From: Alphaproteobacteria bacterium
Lineage (GTDB): Bacteria > Pseudomonadota > Alphaproteobacteria > Micavibrionales > UBA2020
Assembly: GCA_046314385.1 (NCBI GenBank)
Contig: JBKBWZ010000002.1
Coordinates: 697,095 to 761,094, forward strand
Reading direction: 5' to 3'
Length of the DNA stretch: 64,000 nt
In this document: positions 3,764 through 29,831 of the stretch, one piece after another
Layout of the letters: every line of letters begins with the position of its first letter
How positions within the stretch are numbered: the stretch's first letter is position 1
Translations under genes and position numbers: made by a program
The notes under the pieces: model-generated
Databases searched by the model: none
Seen by the model: only the letters and a program-made list of their open reading frames with translations
What the model was told of the DNA's origin: nothing

Positions 3764-3837
3764 TGGAGGCACGGGCCGGAATCGAACCGGCATTCAAGGA
3801 TTTGCAGTCCTCTGCATCACCATTCTGCCACCGCGCC
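3764..3837 (-). tRNA. tRNA-Cys (GCA)
   Basis: The reverse complement reads GGCGCGGTGGCAGAATGGTGATGCAGAGGACTGCAAATCCTTGAATGCCGGTTCGATTCCGGCCCGTGCCTCCA. It has a 7-bp acceptor stem with one G-U pair, anticodon loop CTGCAAA, T-loop GGTTCGATTCC, discriminator U73 and encoded CCA. Confidence 0.92.
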
Positions 3838-17733: not shown

Positions 17734-18648
17734 TTAATAATGTTTTCTCTGTTGCTGCGGCGGTTTTTTGGGCGCGGCGGGCGCTTCTTCTGCTTCGTTT
17801 CCGCGCGGCAGGGTGGTGGCGGCCACGCGCAGGGCGGGCAGCAGGTTGCCGGCCTTCTCGGCCATATCGCGGATCACGGGCAGGGCGGGCGGCGTAAAGT
17901 TATCGACGATTTCGTTGTAATCCAGATCGCCTGATTTATTGGCGTCATAGCGCGTCATCAGGTCGGTGGCGATTTTCTCGCCCTCGTTTTGGGCGCGTTC
18001 TTTCATTTTGGCGATGGTGGCGGCATCCAGCGTGGTTTGCGCCCCCATCTCGGCAAAGAGCATCAGGCTTTCGGTGGCGGCAAGAATCTCGGCGCGGCTC
18101 AGACGGTTGTTGTTGTCGCTATCGGCCAGTTTGAAGGCAACGCGCGCGCAGTCTTTTGAATTGGTCACGGCGCAGGCATCACGCAGACGGTCGACAAAAC
18201 GCATCAGCCGGACCATGTTTTTCGGCACCACACTCGGTGCCTGTGTGCAGGCGGTGTATTCGACGGTCTGGTCATGCGGCAATCTTTCCCATAGGCGCGG
18301 CCAGTTGCGGGTGCGGCGGGCGGGCGGGCGCTCCAGCACGCCGAGGGTCAAAATCCCGTCATCTTCGATCTGCACCGGTGCCGCCGCACCGGAGAGGGAG
18401 AGAATCATGTAATCCTCCGCCTGCCGGTCCAGCCCGGCCGGACGCAGCGAAAGCCCCTCTGGCGAGGATTTTAGGTAAAAATAACGCGTGAAAAGCAGGG
18501 CTTCGTCATAAATGCCGCAATCCGGCAGGGCCCAGTTGCCCTGAATCTTGTCCGGCAGCGCCGTAAGCTCTTGAGCTTTCGCCATATTCCCGCTAAAACA
18601 AAGCGCAATAAGGAAATAAACAATAACGGTTATCAGGCGCTGCATCAT
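17734..18648 (-). CDS. secreted EF-hand domain protein
   Basis: Start trimmed to [26 protein letters not shown] (signal peptide). Two canonical EF-hand loops: [12 protein letters not shown] and [12 protein letters not shown]. Pro/Lys-rich tail. Confidence 0.6.
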
Positions 18649-18679
18649 CCACCGAACCCGGTTGAAACAAGAAAAAATT

Positions 18680-20485
18680 ATGACAGAACAAAAACACATC
18701 CGTAACTTCTCGATTATTGCCCATATCGACCATGGGAAGTCAACACTTGCCGACAGGCTGATCCAGACCTGCGGCGGTTTGACCGCGCGGGAAATGAAGG
18801 AGCAGATCCTCGACAACATGGAGCTGGAGCGCGAGCGCGGCATCACCATCAAGGCGCAGACCGTGCGCCTGACCTACAAAGCGCAGGATGGCAACGAATA
18901 TATTCTCAACCTGATGGATACGCCCGGCCACGTGGATTTCGCCTATGAGGTCAGCCGTTCGCTCGCTGCCTGTGAAGGCGCGCTTTTGGTTGTGGATGCA
19001 AGTCAGGGCGTGGAGGCGCAGACCCTCGCCAACGTATATCAGGCGATCGACAACAATCTTGAAATCGTGCCGGTCATCAACAAGATCGACCTGCCCGCCG
19101 CCGATGCGGACCGCGTGCGTTTGCAGATCGAAGACGTCATTGGCATTGATGCGTCGAATGCGGTGCTGACCTCTGCCAAAAGCGGTATTGGTATTGATGA
19201 ACTGCTCGAAGCCATCGTCACGCGTCTGCCCGCGCCCAAGGGCGACCCGGATGCGCCGCTGAAGGCGCTGCTGGTCGACAGCTGGTACGATGCCTATCTG
19301 GGCGTGGTTATTCTGGTGCGCGTTGTCGAAGGCACGGTACGGATCAAGGACAAGCTGCGATTTGTCAGCACCGGCGCGTCTTACGAAGCTGACCGTGTGG
19401 GCGTGTTTACGCCCAAACACGTGATCACGGGGGAGTTGAAACCCGGCGAGATGGGCTTTATCACCTGCGGCATCAAGACAATTCACGAAACAAAAATCGG
19501 CGACACGATTACGTTTGACCGCAATCCGTGCACCGAAAACCTGCCGGGCTTCAAACCGTCGGTGCCGATGGTGTTTTGCTCCTTGTTCCCGCTGGATTCC
19601 AGCGAGTTTGAAAAACTGCGTGAATCTCTTGGCAAGCTCGCGCTCAACGATGCCAGTCTGCATTACGAAGCCGAAAGCTCGAACGCGCTCGGTATGGGGT
19701 TCCGCTGTGGGTTCCTCGGTCTTTTGCATCTTGAAATTATTCAGGAACGTCTGGAGCGCGAATATAACCTCGATATGATCCCGACCGCGCCGTCGGTGGT
19801 CTACAAAATTTACCTGACCAACCGCGAAGTAATCGATTTGTATAATCCGGCTGATATGCCCGATGTGGTGCGGATCGAAAAAATCGAAGAGCCTTGGATC
19901 AAGGCGACGATTTTTGTGCCCGATGAATATCTGGGCGGTATTTTGCAGCTGTGTCAGGAACGCCGCGGCGTGCAGGTTGAACTGACATGGGTGGGCAGCC
20001 GCGCCATGGCGATTTACCGTCTGCCGCTCAACGAAGTCGTTTTCGATTTCTATGACCGCCTGAAATCCATCTCCCGCGGCTATGCCAGCATGGATTATCA
20101 GCTGGACGGGTTTGAAGAAGGCGATCTGGTGCGCATGAATATCATGGTGAATGGCGAAATTCTCGATGCGCTGTCGATGATCGTCCACCGCAGCCAGGCC
20201 GAACGCCGCGGCCGCCAGTTGTGCGAACGCCTTAAAGACCTTATTCCGCGCCAGTTGTTCAAGGTCGCTATTCAGGCCTCTATCGGCGGCAAAATCATTG
20301 CGCGCGAAGATGTTTCTGCCATGCGCAAGGACGTCACCGCAAAATGCTACGGCGGCGACATCAGCCGCAAACGCAAGCTGCTGGACAAGCAAAAAGAAGG
20401 CAAGAAAAAGATGCGCCAATACGGCAACATCGAAATCCCCCAATCCGCCTTCATCGCCGCTTTGCGGATGAGTGACGATAAGTAA
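18680..20485 (+). CDS. lepA: translation elongation factor 4
   Basis: [22 protein letters not shown]1 motif, [13 protein letters not shown], and the LepA C-terminal domain. The ATG at 18680 is preferred over the TTG at 18662. Confidence 0.95.
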
Positions 20486-21217: not shown

Positions 21218-23470
21218 TTATGCCCCCGGTTTGAATTTGCGTATGAACTGCACGATCTTGCCATCAGCTTTCTGTTCGGCGTCGACTTTGGCCTTATAGG
21301 CTTTCTGGTCGACGGGGCCGACGGCTTTTTCGATGAAGCCGAAGGTCTCTGCCCAGTCCTGAATATACTTCTGGATCGAACGGCCCGCGCCATGGCCGGC
21401 GTCTTTTTCCACGCGCATCAGCGTCAGGTTGTCGGGCGAAGATTTCGCCTGCAATGTCGCGGCCAGTTTAAACGAATGCCACGGCACGACGCGGTCGTCA
21501 TGATCGGCCGTTTTGATCAGGTGCTTGGGATACTTCGCGCCCGGCTTCACGTTATGCAGCGGCGAATAGCGCGCGGCGGTGTTGAAATCTGCTTTGATAT
21601 CCGGATCGCCGTAATCCGACTTCCACGCCGCGCCATAGGTGGCCAGATGGAAGCGGAACATGTCTGTCACGGCGACTTCGGTAATGACCGCGCCGAACAA
21701 ATCGGGGCGCTGCAGCATGGTGGCAGAGGTCAAAAGCCCGCCGTTGCTGCCGCCGTTGATGATCAGGCGGTCTTTCGACGTATAGCCGCTTTTTTGCAGG
21801 TGTTCGGCGCAGGCGATAAAATCGTCAAAGACGTTCTGCTTGTTTTCGCGTCTGCCGCCGTTGTACCAGTCTTCGCCAAATTCGCCGCCACCGCGCAGGT
21901 TGGCCTGCACATAGATGCCGCCGGATTTGACGAAGTGCATGATCGACGTATCATAGCCCGGTGTCAGCGGCACGTTGAACCCGCCGTAGCCGTACAAAAT
22001 CGTTGCCGCGCTGCCGTCCAGTTTGGTGTCGGGGTGACGGATGACGGTCATCGGCACTTTGGTGCCGTCTTTGGATGTAGCATGGAGGCGCTCGACCACG
22101 CAATCGGACAGGTCGTATTTGGCGGCACCTTTGCGCACGAAATCGAGGCTGTTTTTCTCGATATCGTAATGGTAAATGTCGCCCTGCGTTTGCCAGCCGG
22201 AGATTTTCATCGTGAAAAAATCATCATCCTTCTGGATGCGCGCATAGCTGGCTGTAGATTGCAGCGGCAGGGGCATGTCGTGCAGATAATCCCCTTCGGG
22301 TGTGAAGACGCGCACGGCATCGGCGGTGTCGCGGGTATAAAAGCCGAAAAGCTTTCCTTTGTGAATCATCGCGCTGTCAAGGATATCAATCACGTGCTGG
22401 TCGATGACGGTTTCCCAGTTTTCGGGCGCGGGGTTGTACGGGTCAAGCTTGACCAGTTTGCCGCGCGGGGCGTCCTTGTTGGTGACGGCGAGGATCTTGC
22501 CGTCTTCCAGCTCCGCAATCGGGCTCACAGTATAGGTTTTCGGTGCGGTGATCTGGCGGAATTCTTCATTGCTGCCAAAGGGGCGGAAAGAAACGCCGCT
22601 GTTTTTATCCGTGCCGATGCTGTGCCACATCCATTCATATTTGGCGGTCGATAGGCGCGACGGCCCCACGAAGGAATCCGGCTCGGCCACTTCATAAACC
22701 GTTTTGTCCGCTGCGACATCGGTGCCGATGGTGTGGTGCTTCACGATGCTGCGGCGGGTGTCGTCATGCGTGGGATAGGTATACTGGAAACTTGTATTGC
22801 TGCCTTTGTCCCACAGAACGCTGGTAAAACGGCAGTTGTCGATTGTATCGGCCAGATCTGCGCCGGTTTCGACGTCGCGGATATGCAGTGTTTGCGCATC
22901 ACTGCCCGCCTTGGAAACCAGATAAACCACGCGCTTGCCGTCGGGGCTGGGCGTCCAGCCGGACAGGGCAACCGTCCCGTCCTTGCTCAGCGTATTGGGG
23001 TCGATCAAGGGGCGCCACGGGCCTTCTTCGCTGTCGCCGACTTCAACAACGCTTTGTGCTGCCAGCGATTTGTGGAAGGTGCGGAAATATTTCTGGCCGT
23101 AGCGGCTGGGCAGGCTGAAGCTGTCGTAATCAAGCGCATCGGTCATGAATTGCTCGGCGCGTTTCATGCCTTCTTCCTGACCTTTGATATAGTCTTCAAA
23201 GCGGGCGTTCTGCTTGCCGACCCATGTGGCCGTTGCCGGCGCGTCGAGGTCTTCGAGCGGACGGAACGGGTCGGAAACCGGCGTGCCGTGTTTGATCTCG
23301 ACAAGGGTGTTATCGACCGGCGGCTCTGCGGCGCGGAATTGCTCTTCCGGCGATACCGTGAACTGCATATTGGGCAGGCGCGGGGCGCGGTTGTCGTTAT
23401 CGGGGGCGGGCAGATCATGCTTGCCGAAGAGTTTGTTTGCCAGCTGGCGCAGGGAACGTCCGAAAGCCAT
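21218..23470 (-). CDS. prolyl oligopeptidase family serine peptidase (S9A)
   Basis: 750 aa with a beta-propeller region followed by the catalytic domain. Nucleophile motif is GGSNGGLL, with distal D...H (ADHDDRV, GHG). Confidence 0.85.
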   Translation of the reverse strand: MAFGRSLRQLANKLFGKHDLPAPDNDNRAPRLPNMQFTVSPEEQFRAAEPPVDNTLVEIKHGTPVSDPFRPLEDLDAPATATWVGKQNARFEDYIKGQEEGMKRAEQFMTDALDYDSFSLPSRYGQKYFRTFHKSLAAQSVVEVGDSEEGPWRPLIDPNTLSKDGTVALSGWTPSPDGKRVVYLVSKAGSDAQTLHIRDVETGADLADTIDNCRFTSVLWDKGSNTSFQYTYPTHDDTRRSIVKHHTIGTDVAADKTVYEVAEPDSFVGPSRLSTAKYEWMWHSIGTDKNSGVSFRPFGSNEEFRQITAPKTYTVSPIAELEDGKILAVTNKDAPRGKLVKLDPYNPAPENWETVIDQHVIDILDSAMIHKGKLFGFYTRDTADAVRVFTPEGDYLHDMPLPLQSTASYARIQKDDDFFTMKISGWQTQGDIYHYDIEKNSLDFVRKGAAKYDLSDCVVERLHATSKDGTKVPMTVIRHPDTKLDGSAATILYGYGGFNVPLTPGYDTSIMHFVKSGGIYVQANLRGGGEFGEDWYNGGRRENKQNVFDDFIACAEHLQKSGYTSKDRLIINGGSNGGLLTSATMLQRPDLFGAVITEVAVTDMFRFHLATYGAAWKSDYGDPDIKADFNTAARYSPLHNVKPGAKYPKHLIKTADHDDRVVPWHSFKLAATLQAKSSPDNLTLMRVEKDAGHGAGRSIQKYIQDWAETFGFIEKAVGPVDQKAYKAKVDAEQKADGKIVQFIRKFKPGA

Positions 23471-23635
23471 TGCGGGCTCCTTTTGTATGTTTACGAAACT
23501 TTTGAAATGAATCCGGGCAAATTTTGCAAAATTATTGCGTAAAATGCAAACGTTTTGTAATTTACATAAAATTTTGAAAGCGTGCGGCGTTTCAGCGACC
23601 TGTTGAGGCTGGCTGCGTAATGCTTATTCAGGGTT

Positions 23636-24916
23636 TTACGGTGCTTGCTTTGTTTTCTCGCAGCGCTCTTCCATTTTTGCCCCTGCGGCGACAGGATCGA
23701 ATCCCTCAGGCCATGTCGTTTCGCAGGTGTAAGTGCTGCCCGTGAGCTGGACATCTGAGAGGATGGATTTACTGAAATCTACTTTTGTGAAATAACCGTT
23801 GAAAATTTGCGCATTTGAAAAGTCTGTGCCGTCAAGCGTGACTTTAGAAAAGCGGGTTTGGTGAAAACGCGCGTTTTTGAAAATGGTATCCGATAGGTCA
23901 CCTGAAAAGCTGCCGCTCTCGAATGTGGCATCAGTAAAGTCAGCATTCTTGAGGTTAGTTTCTGAGAACCCCGATTGTTGAAAGCGGGCTGCCTTAAAAA
24001 TGGCTTTGGAAAGGTCAGAATTTATAAAATAAGTTTTTTTGAAATCTCCGCGTTCGAAGCTGCTTCCGTTTAGCAGGGCTTTTTTAAAATGCACATTTTC
24101 AAAAGAGTTTAAACCCGCCGCCAAATTTGAATTTTTAATGTCTTTAAAACGCAGATCCTTAAGAAAAAGGCGGCTCTGGTGAGGAATTTCTTTATTTAAG
24201 GCAATCCAGGCGTAACTCCATGGCATTGCGATATTCATATTGCTAGCGTCGCGGCGTTGCGGGAAGGGCGCAGAAAATTCACTTGTATAGAGGTCTGCAA
24301 TTTCTTGCGGCTTTTTAAGCTGAAGGAATACATTCAGCAGGCTCTCTATAACCCAGCGGTTTTGCGGTTCTATTTCCCGAAGTTGCCGCAAGGTTGTCTC
24401 TGCTTGCTGGTAGTCTTGCCAGTAGAGCAGCTGCGCTGCTTTTGCTTTTAACAGCGCAGTTTTGTTTACGGTGTCTCTGGCTATAGATTCATCAAGACTT
24501 CTTATTTCTGAAATCCTCTCGTTAATGGCGCTATAGTCTATAGGTGGTGAAAAGTCTAACCGCTGTGTGCCGGAGCAAGAGGTCACAGCTAGGCCGTCTT
24601 CTCTAGGGTAAGCGTATATAATATATTTTTGTCCAACGAGAAGGCCATTACTGCATGAAGTGGAAAAGAAAGGATCAAAAACCAAAACCTCTTTCTCTGG
24701 AAGGCCTTTATAAACTTTCTCTACGCGAATGAGCGTTTTAGTGGGGGTATATCCCTCTTGCTGAGTACTGATGACTTCTCCTTCGAATATTGTGAGTGCG
24801 TTTTTGTATGATTCGTGAGGTGAAGGCGGGCTACATCTGCAGGCTAGCGCAGGGGTTATCGAAGAGGGGAATACCACAAGCAAGAGGGTAAAAAAAATAG
24901 CGGCTGTTCTCTGCAT
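23636..24916 (-). CDS. secreted protein: TIMP/NTR-like Cys-x-Cys N-terminal domain, a TPR-like middle and C-terminal pentapeptide repeats
   Basis: Start trimmed to MQRTAAIFFTLLLVVFPSSITPALA|CRCSPPSPHE. The C-terminal ~170 aa are A(D/N)LxF-type pentapeptide repeats (NLKNADFTDATFESGSFSGDLSDTIFKNARFHQTRF...). GC is markedly lower than the flanks. Confidence 0.6.
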   Translation of the reverse strand: MQRTAAIFFTLLLVVFPSSITPALACRCSPPSPHESYKNALTIFEGEVISTQQEGYTPTKTLIRVEKVYKGLPEKEVLVFDPFFSTSCSNGLLVGQKYIIYAYPREDGLAVTSCSGTQRLDFSPPIDYSAINERISEIRSLDESIARDTVNKTALLKAKAAQLLYWQDYQQAETTLRQLREIEPQNRWVIESLLNVFLQLKKPQEIADLYTSEFSAPFPQRRDASNMNIAMPWSYAWIALNKEIPHQSRLFLKDLRFKDIKNSNLAAGLNSFENVHFKKALLNGSSFERGDFKKTYFINSDLSKAIFKAARFQQSGFSETNLKNADFTDATFESGSFSGDLSDTIFKNARFHQTRFSKVTLDGTDFSNAQIFNGYFTKVDFSKSILSDVQLTGSTYTCETTWPEGFDPVAAGAKMEERCEKTKQAP

Positions 24917-24933
24917 GGCGACTTGATTCTCTT

Positions 24934-26529
24934 CTAAATATTTTGAGCACGGATATGCGCGACCAGTCCGGCGGTAGAGGCGTCGCGGGTGGTGTCGGGT
25001 GGTGCGGTGCCGGCGATTTCGGGCTCGAGACCTTTGGCGAGCACTTTGCCAAGCTCCACGCCCCATTGGTCAAAGCTGTTCACGCACCACAAAATGCCCT
25101 GCACGAAAACCTTGTGTTCGTACATCGACAGCAAAAGGCCGAGCGTATAGGGCGTCAGCGCGTCGAGCAGGAAAGTTGTCGACGGACGGTTGCCCGTAAA
25201 ATGGCGGTGCGGTTCGGCGGTGTTGTTTTGCCCGCTCATCAGCGCCGCGCTTTGGGCAAGGCAATTGGCCAGCAGCATGCTGTGCTGTGCGGCGCTGCCG
25301 CCGGAGGGCGCGGTGCAGGCGATGAAATCGACCGGCACCACATCGGGGCTCTGGTGCAGCCACTGGAAGAAACTATGCTGCGCGTCCGTGCCCGGTTCGC
25401 CAAAGATAATCGGGCCGGTGGCAACGGGCACGGGCTTGCCATCCTGCATGACCCGCTTGCCGTTGCTTTCCATGTCCAGCTGCTGCAAAAACGCAGGCAG
25501 GCGGCGCAGGGCGGCATGATAGGGGATAACAGCCAGCGCGGGATAATTGCACAGGTTGCGGTGCCACAGGCCGATCAGCCCCATCAGCACGGGCAGGTTT
25601 TTTTCCAGCGGCGCGGTTTTGAAATGCGCATCCATGTCGCGCGCACCGGATAAAAATTCGGCGAATTTATCTGCCCCGACCATCAGCATGACCGACAGGC
25701 CGATTGATGACCAGACGCTATAGCGCCCGCCAACCCAGTCCTGAAACGGAAACATGTTTTCAGGCGCAATACCAAAAGCCGCCACGGCGGCGGCGTTTGT
25801 GGAGGCCGCAACGAAATGCTTTGCCACCGCGGCTTCATCGCGCTTGTAATGCGCCAGCAGCCAGCTGCGCGCGATATGCGCATTCTGCATGGTTTCGGCG
25901 GTGGTGAATGTTTTTGAAGCAACAATAAAAAGCGTGGTTTCAGGATCGATACGGCGCAGCGTACCTTCCAGATCAGACGCTTCGACATTCGCCACATAAT
26001 GCGCGCGCAGGCGCGGATGGTGAAATGCGCCCAGCGCTTCGCAGACCAATTGCGGGCCAAGGCTGGAGCCGCCGATGCCGATATTAACGATATTGGTGAT
26101 TTCTTTGCCGCTATGGCCTGTCCAGCCGCCGCTGCGCAGGGCTTCGCTGAACTGGCCCATACGCGCAAGGGTTTCCTGTACGGCGGGCACAACGTTTTCG
26201 CCGTCGACCATCATCTGCGCATCGGCGCCGGCGCGCAGGGCGGTGTGCAGCACGGCGCGGTTTTCGGTCTGGTTGATGCGTTCGCCCGCGAACATGGCGT
26301 CGCGGCGTTTTTCAAGGCCAGCCGCCCGCGCGAGGGAGACGAGGAGAGAGACGGTTTCTTCGGTGATGTGGTTCTTGGAGTAATCTGCCAAAAGCCCGGG
26401 CAGACGCAGCGAAAGTTTATCAAACCGCGAAGTGTCCTGCGCGAAAAGACCGGAGAGGGGCGTTGCCGCCAGTTTCTGGTGATGCGCCTTCAGAAGCGGC
26501 CAGGGGCTGAGCTGGTTGATATCGGTCAT
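24934..26529 (-). CDS. pgi: glucose-6-phosphate isomerase
   Basis: 531 aa. IGIGGSSLGP, GEPGTDAQHSFFQ and the SFDQWGVELGK signature. Confidence 0.93.
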   Translation of the reverse strand: MTDINQLSPWPLLKAHHQKLAATPLSGLFAQDTSRFDKLSLRLPGLLADYSKNHITEETVSLLVSLARAAGLEKRRDAMFAGERINQTENRAVLHTALRAGADAQMMVDGENVVPAVQETLARMGQFSEALRSGGWTGHSGKEITNIVNIGIGGSSLGPQLVCEALGAFHHPRLRAHYVANVEASDLEGTLRRIDPETTLFIVASKTFTTAETMQNAHIARSWLLAHYKRDEAAVAKHFVAASTNAAAVAAFGIAPENMFPFQDWVGGRYSVWSSIGLSVMLMVGADKFAEFLSGARDMDAHFKTAPLEKNLPVLMGLIGLWHRNLCNYPALAVIPYHAALRRLPAFLQQLDMESNGKRVMQDGKPVPVATGPIIFGEPGTDAQHSFFQWLHQSPDVVPVDFIACTAPSGGSAAQHSMLLANCLAQSAALMSGQNNTAEPHRHFTGNRPSTTFLLDALTPYTLGLLLSMYEHKVFVQGILWCVNSFDQWGVELGKVLAKGLEPEIAGTAPPDTTRDASTAGLVAHIRAQNI

Positions 26530-26596: not shown

Positions 26597-28009
26597 TTAT
26601 TTCTTTTCCGGTTCCTTCATCCCCGGCGGACGGTCGAGCAATATATCGGCCTTTATATCCGCGGGGCGGCCAACCATGACAATGGTCAGCTCGTCCGCTT
26701 TCAAAAGCCGCTGTGCCACGCGGCGTACATCGGCTGCGGTGACTTTTGTGATCTCGGCATTGCGGCGGTTGATGTATTCGGCATCCAGGCCATCGCGCTG
26801 CAGCCCGTTGAGCGTCGAGGCGATATCGCCGGTCGAGGTCAGCTCCAGCAGCAGCGAGCCGGTTAAATAAGCTTTGGCATCGGCAATTTCCTGCTCGCTG
26901 GCGCCTTTTTCGGCCATCAGCTGCCATTCCTGCTTCAGCACATCAACGGCTTCTTTTGCCTTGTCGTTACTGGTGGCAAAACCGGCAGTGATCAGGGCGG
27001 ATTGCCGCATGCTTTGCAGGCTGGAATAGATGCCATAGGTCAGGCCGCGCTTTTCGCGGATTTCGCGCATCAGCCGCGCATCGAAATTACCGCTGCCCAG
27101 AATATAATTCATGACAACAGCCGCATGCCAATCCTTGTCCGCGCGCGCAATCCCGGCGCCGCCGACCGTGATTTGCGTTTGCGGTGTATCCAGCGGATAG
27201 AGCACGGTCTTGCCCGCATATTTGGGCAGGATAAAGCCGATGGGCGCGTTATCGCTTTTCTCCGGCAGTGCGCCAAAAGCCTTGTCGACCAGCTGCGCCG
27301 CCTGCGCTTCGGTGATATCGCCGGCAAGGGCGACTTTCAGGTTGTCACGTGCAAACTGCGCCTTGGTGTAATCAATCAGATCCTGACGCGTGATGGTGGC
27401 CATCGAAGCCAGATGTCCTGCACCGGGCAGGCCATAGGCGTGACCTTCAAAAACCATACCGTTGAAACTGCGCGCGACAAGCCATGCCGGATCGCCGCGG
27501 TCATGCCGGATCTGGGCAACGTTGGCGTTTTTCATACGCTCGATCGCATCGGTATCAAAACGCGGCTGCGTGAGGGCAAGCTGCAATAAATGCGTTGCCA
27601 GATCGCGGTGCTGGGTCAGCGTGCGCAGCTGGCCGTAAAAAGCATCGCGCCCTGCTGTAAATCCCAAACGGATGGCATTGTCAGAGAGTTTGGACTGGAA
27701 TTCCTGACTTTTGATATTGCCGGCACCTTCGTCGAGCAGGATTGATACCAGGCGCGCCACGCCGGGCTTGCCCGCAGGGTCGCCGGCCAGGCCGCCTTCG
27801 AAAGAAAAATTCATCGAGATGACAGGGACGCTTTTATCGCTCACCAGCCAGACTTCGATACCCGCGGGCGTCTTGAAAGATTTGACATCAAGAATCTTGG
27901 CGCGTTCTTTTGCCGCGGCAGGCAGGGCCATGACGGCATAGGCGCAGATCAGCATAGCCGCAGCGATCAGGCCGAAGGACATGCGCAGGGCAGAAAGGGG
28001 GCGGATCAT
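26597..28009 (-). CDS. M16 family peptidase, non-catalytic-type subunit (no HxxEH motif)
   Basis: Signal peptide. Pitrilysin-fold length and blocks are present, but the HxxEH position is replaced (region ARLVSILLDEGAG). A 4-nt overlap links it to the upstream M16 gene. Confidence 0.75.
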   Translation of the reverse strand: MIRPLSALRMSFGLIAAAMLICAYAVMALPAAAKERAKILDVKSFKTPAGIEVWLVSDKSVPVISMNFSFEGGLAGDPAGKPGVARLVSILLDEGAGNIKSQEFQSKLSDNAIRLGFTAGRDAFYGQLRTLTQHRDLATHLLQLALTQPRFDTDAIERMKNANVAQIRHDRGDPAWLVARSFNGMVFEGHAYGLPGAGHLASMATITRQDLIDYTKAQFARDNLKVALAGDITEAQAAQLVDKAFGALPEKSDNAPIGFILPKYAGKTVLYPLDTPQTQITVGGAGIARADKDWHAAVVMNYILGSGNFDARLMREIREKRGLTYGIYSSLQSMRQSALITAGFATSNDKAKEAVDVLKQEWQLMAEKGASEQEIADAKAYLTGSLLLELTSTGDIASTLNGLQRDGLDAEYINRRNAEITKVTAADVRRVAQRLLKADELTIVMVGRPADIKADILLDRPPGMKEPEKK

Positions 28010-29364
28010 GGTGTGGCTCCTTTCGCGTCCTTGGCGGCGGGCGGTGTTTTGGGCAGCAAGATGCCCGTCACGGGGAAATCCTCGCCTTTAAAAACGGTTG
28101 TGGCCGCTTGCCCGATATCGTCGATGCCGAGTTTTTCAAGCCGCGTCACGATGTTCTCGACGTAATCGATGCCAAAGCCGCTGGTCAGCACGCGCCCGAA
28201 CAAAAGCGCAGGGCCTTGCAGGCTATCGAGGTAATAGGTCAGATTGGCGCGCTTGCGGCCTTTGGCTGCCTTTAGTTCTTCCAGCGTCACGCCTTTGTCA
28301 AGCAACAGGGCAATCTCTTGTCCCAAAGCCGCTTCAAGATCGGCGATGGAAACGCCCGGCGCGGGGGTCGCATAAAGTGAAAAGGTGGTTTCGCTGAGGC
28401 TCAGCGGTTCGTAATTCGCACCGGCGGAAATAGCCAGTTTGCGCTCCACCACCAGCCGTTTATACAGCCTTGATGTAGAGGTGCCGCCAAGGATTTCGGC
28501 AAGCATGTCAAGCGCGTCTTCGCCGCGCGGTGCGCGCCATGTTTTCATGATAACCGGCTGGCCGATGCGTGCATCTTCCATCACCAGCCGCGGTGCGGCA
28601 ACAATCGGTGCCGCGCGCGTGCGTTTGCGCTCCGGCACGGTTTGTGCCGCGATGGGGCCATAGTGTTTTTTTGCCAGCGGCTCCAGCTCCTTGGCGGTGA
28701 TATCGCCGGAGACGATCAGGATGGCGTTATTCGGCGCATACCATTCATTGTACTGGTCAAAAGCATCTTCGCGCGTCAACTCGCGTATTTCATGCAGCCA
28801 GCCGATAACGGGCACGCCATAGGGGTGGTTGATGAACAGGGTGCTCATCATTTGTTCCTGAAACCGCGCTTGCGGGCGGCTGTCCACGCGCTGGCGGCGC
28901 TCTTCGATGATGACCTGACGTTCCGATGCGACTTCTTCTTCGCGCAGGACAAGGTTTTTCATCCGGTCGGCTTCCATCTCCATCACTTTTTCAAGATGGG
29001 CGAGGGGCACGTTTTGGTAATAGGCCGTGAAATCCTGCGACGTAAAGGCATTGTCATTGCCGCCGAGTTTTTTCACGATGCGTGAAAACTGCCCGTCCGG
29101 CACGTTGGGCGTGCCCTTGAACATCAGGTGTTCAAGGAAATGGGCAATGCCAGATTTGCCGGCCGTTTCATCCGCGCCGCCGAATTTGTACCAGATCATA
29201 TGCGTGACCACCGGCGCGCGGTGATTGGGGATGACCACAACCTTCAGGCCGTTATCAAGGGTAAAGGTCTGGGCATTAAAAATCTTCTCCGCCGCCGCCG
29301 GTGCGGGCAACGTCAGGATCAGAAACGCAAAAATGAAAACACAGCCAAGAAGACGCATCGGCAA
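28006..29364 (-). CDS. M16 family zinc metallopeptidase (catalytic-type subunit)
   Basis: Signal peptide. Inverted zinc motif GIAHFLEHLMFKG (HxxEH) with a downstream Glu block. Confidence 0.85.
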   Translation of the reverse strand: MPMRLLGCVFIFAFLILTLPAPAAAEKIFNAQTFTLDNGLKVVVIPNHRAPVVTHMIWYKFGGADETAGKSGIAHFLEHLMFKGTPNVPDGQFSRIVKKLGGNDNAFTSQDFTAYYQNVPLAHLEKVMEMEADRMKNLVLREEEVASERQVIIEERRQRVDSRPQARFQEQMMSTLFINHPYGVPVIGWLHEIRELTREDAFDQYNEWYAPNNAILIVSGDITAKELEPLAKKHYGPIAAQTVPERKRTRAAPIVAAPRLVMEDARIGQPVIMKTWRAPRGEDALDMLAEILGGTSTSRLYKRLVVERKLAISAGANYEPLSLSETTFSLYATPAPGVSIADLEAALGQEIALLLDKGVTLEELKAAKGRKRANLTYYLDSLQGPALLFGRVLTSGFGIDYVENIVTRLEKLGIDDIGQAATTVFKGEDFPVTGILLPKTPPAAKDAKGATP

Positions 29365-29435
29365 CCTTTATTGTTGGACGTCAGCGAGATGCCAGACTAT
29401 AAATTATGAAGCCCATTGTTTAACAGAGATTGAAG

Positions 29436-29831
29436 ATGAAAAAAAGAACAGCTCCCGCCGCAGATATCCATAAACAAGACAAACACGTGCTTGCCGCCGA
29501 TCTGCTCAAAAAACACCGCCAGAAGATCGATAAAATCGACGCCCAGCTGCTGAAGCTGCTCGGCGACCGCTTTGAAGTGGTGCGTGACGTTGCTGACGTC
29601 AAGATAAAGCATGATATTCCGGCCTTTCTTGGCGGCCGCGTCAACGAAGTGCGCAACAATGCCGTCAAGCTGGGCATTCTTTATGGAATTGATCCGGATT
29701 TCGTGCGCACGCTTTATACCATGCTGATTTACCAGTCCTGCGCCGAAGAAGAGGTGCTGAAGCACGAAGCGCAGCAGAAAAAATCCGGTATCAAAAAAAC
29801 ACCCGCTGCGCGAAAGCCCCGTAAAAAGTGA
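29436..29831 (+). CDS. chorismate mutase (AroQ class)
   Basis: RQKIDKIDAQLLKLLGDRFEVVRDVADVK is the AroQ helix-1 pattern. Small helical protein with a basic tail. The ATG at 29436 is preferred over the TTG at 29430. Confidence 0.7.
   Translation: MKKRTAPAADIHKQDKHVLAADLLKKHRQKIDKIDAQLLKLLGDRFEVVRDVADVKIKHDIPAFLGGRVNEVRNNAVKLGILYGIDPDFVRTLYTMLIYQSCAEEEVLKHEAQQKKSGIKKTPAARKPRKK

Follow-up and report, generated by a model that had tools for sequence, protein, structure and literature searches.

Tissue inhibitors of metalloproteinases (TIMPs) act by an established mechanism, in which the free α-amine and the carbonyl of Cys1 chelate the zinc of the protease, and their disulfides include C1-C70 and C3-C99 in TIMP-1 numbering (PMC9409782). 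Reviews and evolutionary studies treat the family as eukaryotic or metazoan (PMC4860685, PMC9409782). In Listeria monocytogenes, an exported lipoprotein with a predicted TIMP-like fold, Tim (LMRG_00714), was linked to the metzincin Mtz, and its authors found in 2021 no earlier record of bacterial TIMP-like proteins; for the serralysin-type inhibitors, a TIMP-like mode of interaction has been pointed out (PMC8235301). The present analysis concerns a gene, here called gene X, which lies on the minus strand between pgi and an S9 prolyl oligopeptidase gene in a 64-kb window of the alphaproteobacterial contig JBKBWZ010000002.1 (the window being the whole stretch of 64,000 nucleotides, to which all coordinates refer). 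The N-terminal domain of its product can with little doubt be placed in the TIMP superfamily by homology and fold, and the gene itself is very likely an accessory islet, as had been proposed in an original prediction made from the DNA sequence.

The relationship to TIMPs became visible with sequence profiles. The N-domain of X (residues 26-125; 24542-24841, minus strand) belongs to a protein that alone matched the Pfam TIMP model PF00965 with an E-value of 0.036 and 14.3 bits, residues 25-116 aligning with profile positions 2-109. Five of ten small relatives (P0038, P0039, P0040, P0045 and P0053) exceed the cut-off of this model with 23.6-32.5 bits. A profile of six orthologues matched the N-terminal domain of TIMP-2 (N-TIMP-2) with an E-value of 0.0035, with C26, C28, C88 and C114 of X falling on C1, C3, C72 and C101. 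With a profile of 60 N-domain sequences E-values of 1.1e-8 for TIMP-2, 2.9e-7 for TIMP-3 and 5e-6 for TIMP-1 were obtained, the next match being agrin NtA. The TIMPs made up the top 15 sequence matches of this profile, the alignment spanned Cys1 to about residue 104 in the register of Cys1, and no bacterial structure was found among the matches. No NCBIfam model was found for the N-domain of X or of the ten small relatives.

The predicted structure leads to the same family. An AlphaFold model of the N-domain, calculated from the 60-sequence alignment, reached a predicted local distance difference test (pLDDT) score of 87.1, and in a Foldseek search of this model against the PDB ranks 1-18 were all occupied by TIMPs (TMq 0.70-0.81; root-mean-square deviation 2.4-3.8 Å), followed by the NTR module of PCOLCE, agrin NtA, complement C345C and the NTR module of meteorin. 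The TIMP/NTR homology suspected in the original prediction is thus borne out by profiles, by relatives that pass the Pfam cut-off and by fold. In the family alignment, where C26, C28, C88 and C114 of X are numbered C1, C3, C63 and C89, all four cysteines are kept in 175 of 185 aligned domains. The three domains that lack C1 all lack C63 as well, and C3 and C89 are both missing in two domains. None of the 185 domains has lost cysteines across the pairs (C1 together with C89, or C3 together with C63), and C89 was never lost alone. This pattern of loss supports a connectivity like that of C1-C70 and C3-C99 in TIMPs. The two further cysteines of X, which lie in FSTSCSNG and AVTSCSGT and had been suggested as disulfide partners, are C88 and C114; they align with TIMP-2 C72 and C101 and covary with C26 and C28, so that this suggestion gains support as well.

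In the TIMP mechanism the N-terminal cysteine has to be free, and the N-terminus of X is compatible with this. Residues 1-25 (MQRTAAIFFTLLLVVFPSSITPALA; 24842-24916, minus strand) form a predicted signal peptide with a positive n-region, a hydrophobic core (maximum 9-mer hydropathy 3.2) and Ala at -3 and -1, and the protein reads ...SSITPALA and then CRCSPPSPHESYKNALTIFEGEV, with the A-x-A site before Cys26. A very similar arrangement emerged from 136 relatives with C1 at positions 12-60: Ala is found at -1 in 120 and Ala or Val at -3 in 106 of them, -2 is commonly occupied by F, Y, Q, R, W or K, C1 has a median position of 25-26, and a Cys follows at residue 3 in 131 (C26-R-C28 in X). Judged by the A-x-A rule and by family conservation, mature X would start at Cys26 after cleavage between A25 and C26, which agrees with the earlier reading of a signal peptide ending in TPALA that is followed directly by Cys-x-Cys. 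Residue 2, a predicted contact residue, is most often Ser (72 of the 136 relatives), with Asp (12), Thr (11), Arg (10) and Lys (9) as less frequent alternatives, and it changes fast among the six closest relatives (R, R, W, R, L and S). The relative P0002 has Arg in place of Cys at position 3. Its C-terminus (locus L005, 9282-9380) ends with YPPPPPPPPPPPRPGGGGG...KKKKI at a contig edge, which is homopolymer assembly junk and not a real extension.

The N-domain proved to be widespread. When 1.84 billion cluster representatives were searched exhaustively with HMMER, 3,180 proteins were obtained at E ≤ 1e-3. A word-indexed search with a six-sequence N-domain profile returned no match, not even its own six proteins; as the exhaustive search found 3,180, this blank reflects limited sensitivity and not absence. 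Most of the relatives comprise 120-220 aa with the domain directly after the signal peptide, and an Ala followed by CxC is present in about 90% of the 136 relatives mentioned above. Among the small single-domain relatives are proteins of a cyanobacterium, of a Bacillus and of Alphaproteobacteria as well as MYXO-CTERM-tagged (myxobacterial-type) proteins. Databases label the small bacterial relatives "Tissue inhibitor of metalloproteinase" or "hypothetical protein"; JGI gives the former name to one relative, and PF00965 was precomputed for 12 of 57. Three relatives (P0044, P0046 and P0052) end with G-G-C-A-S-C, a hydrophobic stretch and an Arg-rich tail of the MYXO-CTERM type (JGI names P0046 so), and these tails suggest a surface attachment in myxobacteria-like organisms. 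In Bacillus sp. N5-665 (NZ_CP093325.1; locus L105, 4992-5531) an unannotated ORF (open reading frame) of 179 aa encodes a signal peptide, Ala followed by CDC, a TIMP-like domain and, at the C-terminus, a transmembrane anchor; the record is 5.5 Mb long, is labeled "plasmid p1" and has no more than 25 features annotated.

Far fewer proteins share the whole architecture of X, that is the TIMP-like N-domain, a helical domain, a pentapeptide domain and a cap. It was found in about a dozen clusters, of which P0027-29, P0032, P0034 and P0036 are 370-420 aa long, while P0030, P0031, P0037, P0071 and P0073 reach about 1000 aa and contain several pentapeptide blocks, each with a cap. The few members with a source name are alphaproteobacterial metagenome-assembled genomes, and a scan of species-representative genome contigs found X in only one, Rhodospirillaceae bacterium UBA8982. 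The relatives of about 1000 aa (loci L010 and L011) contain at least four pentapeptide blocks, each of which is ended by a Y-D-C-x-T-x-W-P-E-G-F-D-P cap. In P0031, P0037 and P0071, C1 and C63 were lost together, and the TIMP-like wedge is probably unused there.

The three regions that follow the N-domain in X are all on the minus strand. A TPR-like helical domain (residues ~128-240; 24197-24535) consists of seven helices in the AlphaFold model, from residues 129-147 to residues 227-239, with a pLDDT of about 88-93; the helical middle segment assumed in the original prediction is thereby confirmed, with TPR-type sequence matches being weak (TPR_6, E 0.23; BepA TPR region, 3.4e-4; BcsC, 0.12). 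It is followed by a pentapeptide right-handed β-helix (residues ~245-395; 23732-24184) with a pLDDT of 90-98. Here three Pfam models exceed their cut-offs over residues ~260-400 (PF13599, 65.6 bits; PF00805, 64.5 bits; PF13576, 52.5 bits) and sequence matches of X to pentapeptide proteins in the PDB reach 1e-11, so that the pentapeptide C-terminus of the earlier reading stands. The full-length AlphaFold model (pLDDT 82.4; predicted template modeling score, pTM, 0.75) shows a small β-domain at residues 26-120, the seven helices at 129-239, a regular β-helix at 249-395 and a short tail, and it matches the structures of Qnr, MfpA and Rfr proteins and, separately, those of TIMPs. The tail corresponds to a C-terminal cap, Y-x-C-x-T-x-W-P-E-G-F-D-P-x-A-A-G-A...C (23636-23731 including the stop codon), with the conserved Cys398 and Cys419. 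C419 is invariant in alignments A1 and A4, C398 is invariant in A1 and at least 90% conserved in A4, and the cap motif with both cysteines is common to all relatives of the X architecture.

Gene X (23636-24916) encodes 426 aa followed by a stop codon. The ORF (23636-25066) runs into the end of pgi, and the real start of the gene is the ATG at 24916 (MQRTAAIFF...); the orthologues P0002-P0006 all begin with the same Met. The ratio of nonsynonymous to synonymous substitution rates (ω) of X is 0.15-0.30, compared with 0.05-0.13 for pgi and the peptidases; X is therefore under purifying selection and a real gene. Broken down by domain in the L005/L006 pair of orthologues, which is not saturated, ω is highest in the pentapeptide domain (0.63) and the N-domain (0.49), lower in the helical domain (0.17) and 0 in the C-terminal cap. 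Gene X is thus constrained, yet two of its surfaces evolve fast.

By analogy with TIMPs, the following mode of action can be proposed. X would be exported by Sec, signal peptidase I would cut after ...TPALA, and the mature protein would start with Cys26. Residues 26-125 would form an OB-fold that is homologous to N-TIMP and held by the disulfides Cys26-Cys88 and Cys28-Cys114. The free α-amino group and the carbonyl of Cys26 could then chelate the catalytic zinc of a metalloprotease, with residues 26-30 (C-R-C-S-P) and the segment before Cys88 filling the active-site cleft. Arg27 would enter the S1′ pocket, and the target should therefore have an S1′ pocket unlike the hydrophobic one of matrix metalloproteinases. 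The helical domain and the β-helix would replace the TIMP C-terminal domain, probably, if one may speculate, as a rigid exosite or spacing module. The likeliest role appears to be the protection of the envelope or periplasm from a foreign zinc protease of a competitor, predator or host, or else the control of a zinc protease encoded elsewhere. A variable residue 2 in a strain-variable, fast-evolving and low-G+C gene fits with an engagement of foreign partners. Taken as a whole, this explanation of X, including the inhibition of a zinc protease through the N-terminus, appears to us evenly poised between right and wrong.

Several observations weigh against X being such an inhibitor. The score of X itself (14.3 bits) is below the Pfam TIMP gathering cut-off of 23.1, and a pairwise BLASTP comparison of the N-domain with N-TIMP-2 gives no alignment, so that the relation to TIMPs is visible only by profiles or structure. 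The third N-TIMP disulfide (C13-C124) is missing, with Lys or Asn at the aligned position and with the domain stopping before the C124 equivalent, and the TIMP C-terminal domain with its three further disulfides is missing as well. Residue 2 of X is Arg27 and not Ser or Thr as in animal TIMPs. The start at Cys26 is based on a predicted cleavage site, and a Sec signal alone predicts X to reside in the periplasm and not outside the cell. Some long relatives keep the N-domain without C1 and C63, and the domain can therefore serve without the Cys1 wedge. Finally, no protease target could be identified near X, and eight genomic contexts of relatives did not reveal any consistent metalloprotease neighbor. 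The only protease adjacency in these contexts is a putative DUF6782 metallopeptidase beside P0029. It is encoded in locus L007 (6869-7882; 40.8 bits, cut-off 27) on the same strand and directly upstream of P0029 (8001-9257), and an M48 peptidase is found about 6 kb from P0029 in the same locus.

The peptidase genes next to X, one S9 and two M16, had been taken in the original prediction as a hint at its function. They are no evidence for its function, as the same genes flank the empty site in genomes without X and the adjacency is probably coincidental. S9 enzymes are serine peptidases and M16 enzymes are not metzincins. The S9 peptidase or the M16 pair as targets of X were rejected as unsupported for the same reason, and because other relatives lie in unrelated contexts.

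Other functions of the N-terminus were weighed against zinc-protease inhibition. The N-domain might be an NTR-type binding module, X then being a periplasmic or surface scaffold or adhesin which works through its TPR-like and pentapeptide domains. We consider this rather unlikely, but netrins, sFRPs, complement C3/4/5 and agrin NtA do use the same fold for binding, and, after TIMPs, the best matches in structure and sequence are to NTR modules and agrin NtA. A binding module would also be in line with the missing protease partner beside X and most relatives, with the retention of the domain in ~1000-aa relatives without C1 and C63, and with a pentapeptide surface that evolves as fast as the N-domain in the L005/L006 pair (ω 0.63 vs 0.49). 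However, NTR modules without inhibitory activity typically lie inside or at the C-terminal end of their proteins and are not known to expose a free N-terminal Cys, whereas the X-type domain always stands right behind the signal peptide and its preceding Ala and CxC, found in nine tenths of the 136 relatives, are the defining arrangement of inhibitory TIMPs. In addition, the top 18 structural and the top 15 sequence matches are TIMPs and not NTR modules. It is very improbable that X is a lipoprotein, with Cys26 acylated as the +1 residue of a signal peptidase II site, the protein tethered to the membrane and the CxC likeness to TIMPs incidental. Although a Cys right after the signal peptide is a hallmark of lipoproteins and the TIMP-like Tim of Listeria is a lipoprotein released by cleavage (PMC8235301), X, with A-L-A-C and a Pro at -4, fails the classic lipobox L-[AS]-[GA]-C, the pattern [LVI][ASTVI][GAS]C and the PROSITE-type pattern. 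The -2 residues of the family, many of which are F, Y, Q, R, W or K, likewise speak against it, with just 12 of the 136 relatives fitting the classic lipobox, and the covariation of C26 and C88 as disulfide partners is incompatible with a thioether-linked lipid. Still less credence can be given to the idea that the CxC N-terminus is a periplasmic Cu/Zn site and X a metal chaperone or sensor. X is indeed exported and CxC binds metals in some proteins, but the cysteines are lost only in the pairs C1/C63 and C3/C89, which are aligned with the TIMP disulfides, there is no conserved His- or Met-rich metal site, and no metal-handling genes are located nearby. Zinc-protease inhibition through a free Cys26 is the preferred, if evenly balanced, explanation of the N-domain.

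The second main result concerns the locus. Upstream, pgi (glucose-6-phosphate isomerase; 24934-26529, minus strand; Pfam PGI, 643 bits) ends only 17 nt before the start of X, and downstream the prolyl oligopeptidase gene (21218-23470, minus strand; Pfam Peptidase_S9_N and Peptidase_S9) follows after a spacer of 165 bp (23471-23635) with a G+C content of 39%. X itself has a G+C content of 44.7%, compared with 57.3% for the whole window. Across gene-sized windows with a mean of 57.3% and a standard deviation of 2.8%, the region of X (43.8-44.7%) is the minimum of the 64 kb, about 4.5 standard deviations under the mean. The G+C content at third codon positions (GC3) is 0.45 in X and is the lowest of all 44 non-overlapping ORFs, for which a mean of 0.654 and a standard deviation of 0.055 were calculated. 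The five 60-nt lines that had been counted by hand were all exact when recounted (21/60, 21/60, 21/60, 33/60 and 39/60), and the atypical composition they had pointed to is confirmed by the computed G+C content and GC3 across the window. A further G+C dip in the window (18450-18900; 0.47-0.51), beside lepA, is overlapped by an ORF of 372 aa (17734-18852, minus strand) with a weak match to an EF-hand pair, and another one (29250-29700) coincides with the beginning of M16a (28006-29364) and the sequence that adjoins it.

Comparison with other genomes revealed both occupied and empty versions of the same site. L001, L005 and L006 share with the window the gene order M16-M16-pgi-X-S9 peptidase, and at least four genomes have an orthologue of X at this position. 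In L001, L005 and L006 X is G+C-poor too (44.5-48.6%; GC3 0.47-0.50 vs 0.71-0.76 in the flanking genes). A scan of metagenomes with the Pgi protein detected empty sites in three genomes (L018, L019 and the outgroup L021), which have between pgi and the S9 gene just a spacer of about 175 bp and no X; this also ruled out that X is merely a conserved syntenic gene without any insertion. The Pgi proteins of L018 and L019 are 85-86% identical to that of the window and the one of L021 73%. From the occupied (window, L001 and L006) and empty (L018, L019 and L021) sites the islet could be delimited, with a precision of about 10 nt, to ~1.34 kb (23598-24933, minus strand), comprising a 17-nt leader after the pgi stop, X and a tail of about 38 nt, all of which are missing from the empty-site genomes. 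Similarity between both kinds of sites restarts at a common GCTGAA (window position 23597). The last codons of pgi (24934-24950) vary at the islet junction, reading AQNI, RRQQ, RHQS, RNQS, AQNG or AQNS among the pgi 3′ ends of the window, L001, L005, L006, L018 and L019, and even L001 and L019, otherwise about 99% identical, differ there. The indel junction therefore extends into the C-terminus of Pgi.

As L019 lacks and L001 carries X, while their Pgi and M16a proteins are 98.7% and 99.5% identical and both flanks are about 99% identical in nucleotides, X is polymorphic for presence and absence at the level of strains, at a fixed slot that is empty in the outgroup. The alleles of X are only 53-69% identical, compared with 77-90% for the flanking proteins, which indicates that the insertion is not recent in origin; the islet is an old polymorphic slot and not a fresh insertion. 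The relationships among the alleles depart from the pgi tree, the window being nearer to L005 and L006 than L001 is. Within the L005/L006 pair the synonymous divergence of X (0.211) equals that of pgi (0.205), so that X was inherited vertically in this pair. The absence of a mobility gene, noted already in the original prediction, holds true: no tRNA, insertion sequence element, integrase or mobility gene is attached to the islet, the only tRNA of the window being located at 3764-3837, no flanking repeats were found at the islet, and the neighbors are housekeeping genes. The islet thus combines atypical composition with presence/absence at a fixed site, and it shows no hallmarks of a mobile element; the compositionally atypical single-gene islet of the original prediction is corroborated by the G+C and GC3 outliers together with the empty sites. 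A phage as vehicle was rejected, as a scan of viral contigs revealed only the pentapeptide and cap module and never the N-domain, and as a fold search of BFVD returned nothing. The IMG/VR viral contigs L098-L104 contain a pentapeptide block and a W-P-[ED]-G-F-D-P cap (X residues ~247-422) without the TIMP-like domain. A plasmid vehicle was likewise discarded, plasmid matches being pentapeptide-only except for the one unannotated Bacillus TIMP-like ORF described above.

The history of the locus might be read as follows. X is very likely an accessory gene of a Rhodospirillaceae-like alphaproteobacterial lineage, in which it occupies a fixed slot bounded by the stop codon of pgi and by the promoter region of the S9 peptidase gene. 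It would have come from a source of lower G+C content prior to the divergence of the X-bearing species, and would since have stayed polymorphic, present in some genomes and absent from others, with strongly divergent alleles. Alternatively, X could have resided in the ancestor and been lost by deletion in some strains, its low G+C content resulting from weak expression, weak codon selection and repeats rich in Lys, Asn, Phe and Ser. Such a history would agree with an identical slot in three species-level lineages with alleles down to 53% identity, with the lack of any mobility gene or repeat, and with the clean absence in L019 next to the ~99% identical flanks of L001, which fits a recent deletion. 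It would also agree with relatives in other lineages being G+C-poor compared with their flanks (44.7 vs 58% for P0027 in L013, 46 vs 53% for P0006 in L012, and 51 vs 59%). As these contexts are unrelated to that of X, low G+C content goes with the gene family and not just with this locus. Nevertheless, we regard a resident origin as improbable, as the outgroup L021 has the empty arrangement, as GC3, which is not set by amino acid composition, is 0.45 in X and 0.72 in the flanking genes and the most extreme of the 44 ORFs, and as the conflict between the allele tree and the pgi tree suggests an exchange of alleles.

The original prediction had also counted the AT-rich spacer down to about 23480 as part of the insertion. 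Its low G+C content was confirmed, but its membership of the insertion does not hold for 23471-23597 (minus strand), a region upstream of the S9 gene that lies outside the islet and recurs, highly conserved, at the empty sites. It holds an AT-rich block of about 47 nt (~23523-23569, minus strand; TTATGTAAATTAyAAAAnnTTTGCATTTTACGCAATAATTTTGCAAA), which is invariant in three species-level genomes and in both empty-site genomes and is still recognizable in the outgroup L021. As the block is present in empty sites and outgroup alike, this part of the spacer is ancestral and not foreign. The block is single-copy in the window, is much better conserved than the adjoining coding DNA and includes an imperfect palindrome (TTGCAT-TTTA-CGCAA) and a possible promoter (TTGCAT-N17-CAAAAT); it is probably an operator or promoter. 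For X, neither a promoter-like site nor a convincing terminator was found on its strand, and no Rfam family was detected in 23200-25200. Given the 17-nt gap and the lack of a promoter-like site on its strand, X probably rides on the pgi transcript.

Evidence from sequence, fold and Cys covariation now points to a bacterial TIMP branch that keeps the hallmark of a Cys1-x-Cys3 N-terminus, predicted to be free. In full-text literature searches no paper turned up that contains the phrase "bacterial TIMP" or "prokaryotic TIMP". X is a new architectural variant in this branch, which is partly flagged by databases and for which no study was found in the literature. In its broadest form, the idea would be that bacteria hold a large family of genuine TIMP homologs with the animal device of a disulfide-braced N-terminal Cys which is exposed by signal peptidase and chelates zinc, X being a three-domain member on a strain-variable and fast-evolving islet that acts as a periplasmic or surface shield against foreign zinc proteases with its β-helix as a new exosite; this is possible, albeit with a chance that falls somewhat short of even. 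If inhibition were true, the origin of the TIMP mechanism would need to be revisited, as it would not be an animal invention, and a new class of bacterial protease inhibitors for microbial warfare, predation or host interaction would emerge, together with compact scaffolds for inhibitor engineering. Independent of function, the locus is an unusually clean one-gene accessory slot, with presence/absence, deep allelic divergence, conserved housekeeping flanks and no mobile-element machinery.

Among known periplasmic inhibitors, there is a mechanistic parallel to AprI, Inh and SmaPI (MEROPS I38), in which the N-terminal residue enters the active site of a metzincin and coordinates its zinc by the free amine; ecotin and AprI also offer an analogy for a periplasmic X. 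However, these I38 inhibitors form an unrelated eight-stranded barrel and are encoded in an operon with their protease, and no homology of X to them was seen in any search. Exported or lumenal pentapeptide proteins, such as cyanobacterial Rfr32 and Rfr23, Arabidopsis TL15 and the luminal domain of SV2, share with X a right-handed quadrilateral β-helix outside the cytoplasm but, unlike X, are not known to carry a TIMP-like or TPR-like domain. Qnr and MfpA act as DNA mimics in the cytoplasm, a role that is unlikely for X. Tim of Listeria shows TIMP similarity at the level of structure only and is a lipoprotein, whereas X exhibits homology at the level of sequence, has a predicted signal peptidase I site and lacks an adjacent metzincin. 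The small bacterial TIMP-like proteins (~120-220 aa) possess the same N-domain with Ala and then CxC after the signal peptide, yet they are single-domain proteins, often with a C-terminal anchor or MYXO-CTERM, to which X adds about 300 aa of helical and pentapeptide domains. From animal TIMPs (MEROPS I35, PF00965) X differs in being bacterial, in the lack of the third N-domain disulfide and of the C-terminal domain, in Arg at residue 2 and in a score under the Pfam cut-off. Both are alike in a Cys1 that is exposed by signal cleavage (predicted in X), in Cys1-x-Cys3, in two disulfides and in a five-stranded OB-fold. This likeness extends to the N-terminus itself, which reads C-R-C-S-P-P-S-P in X and C-S-C-S-P-V-H-P in TIMP-2, and a C-G after the C70 equivalent is common in the bacterial family.

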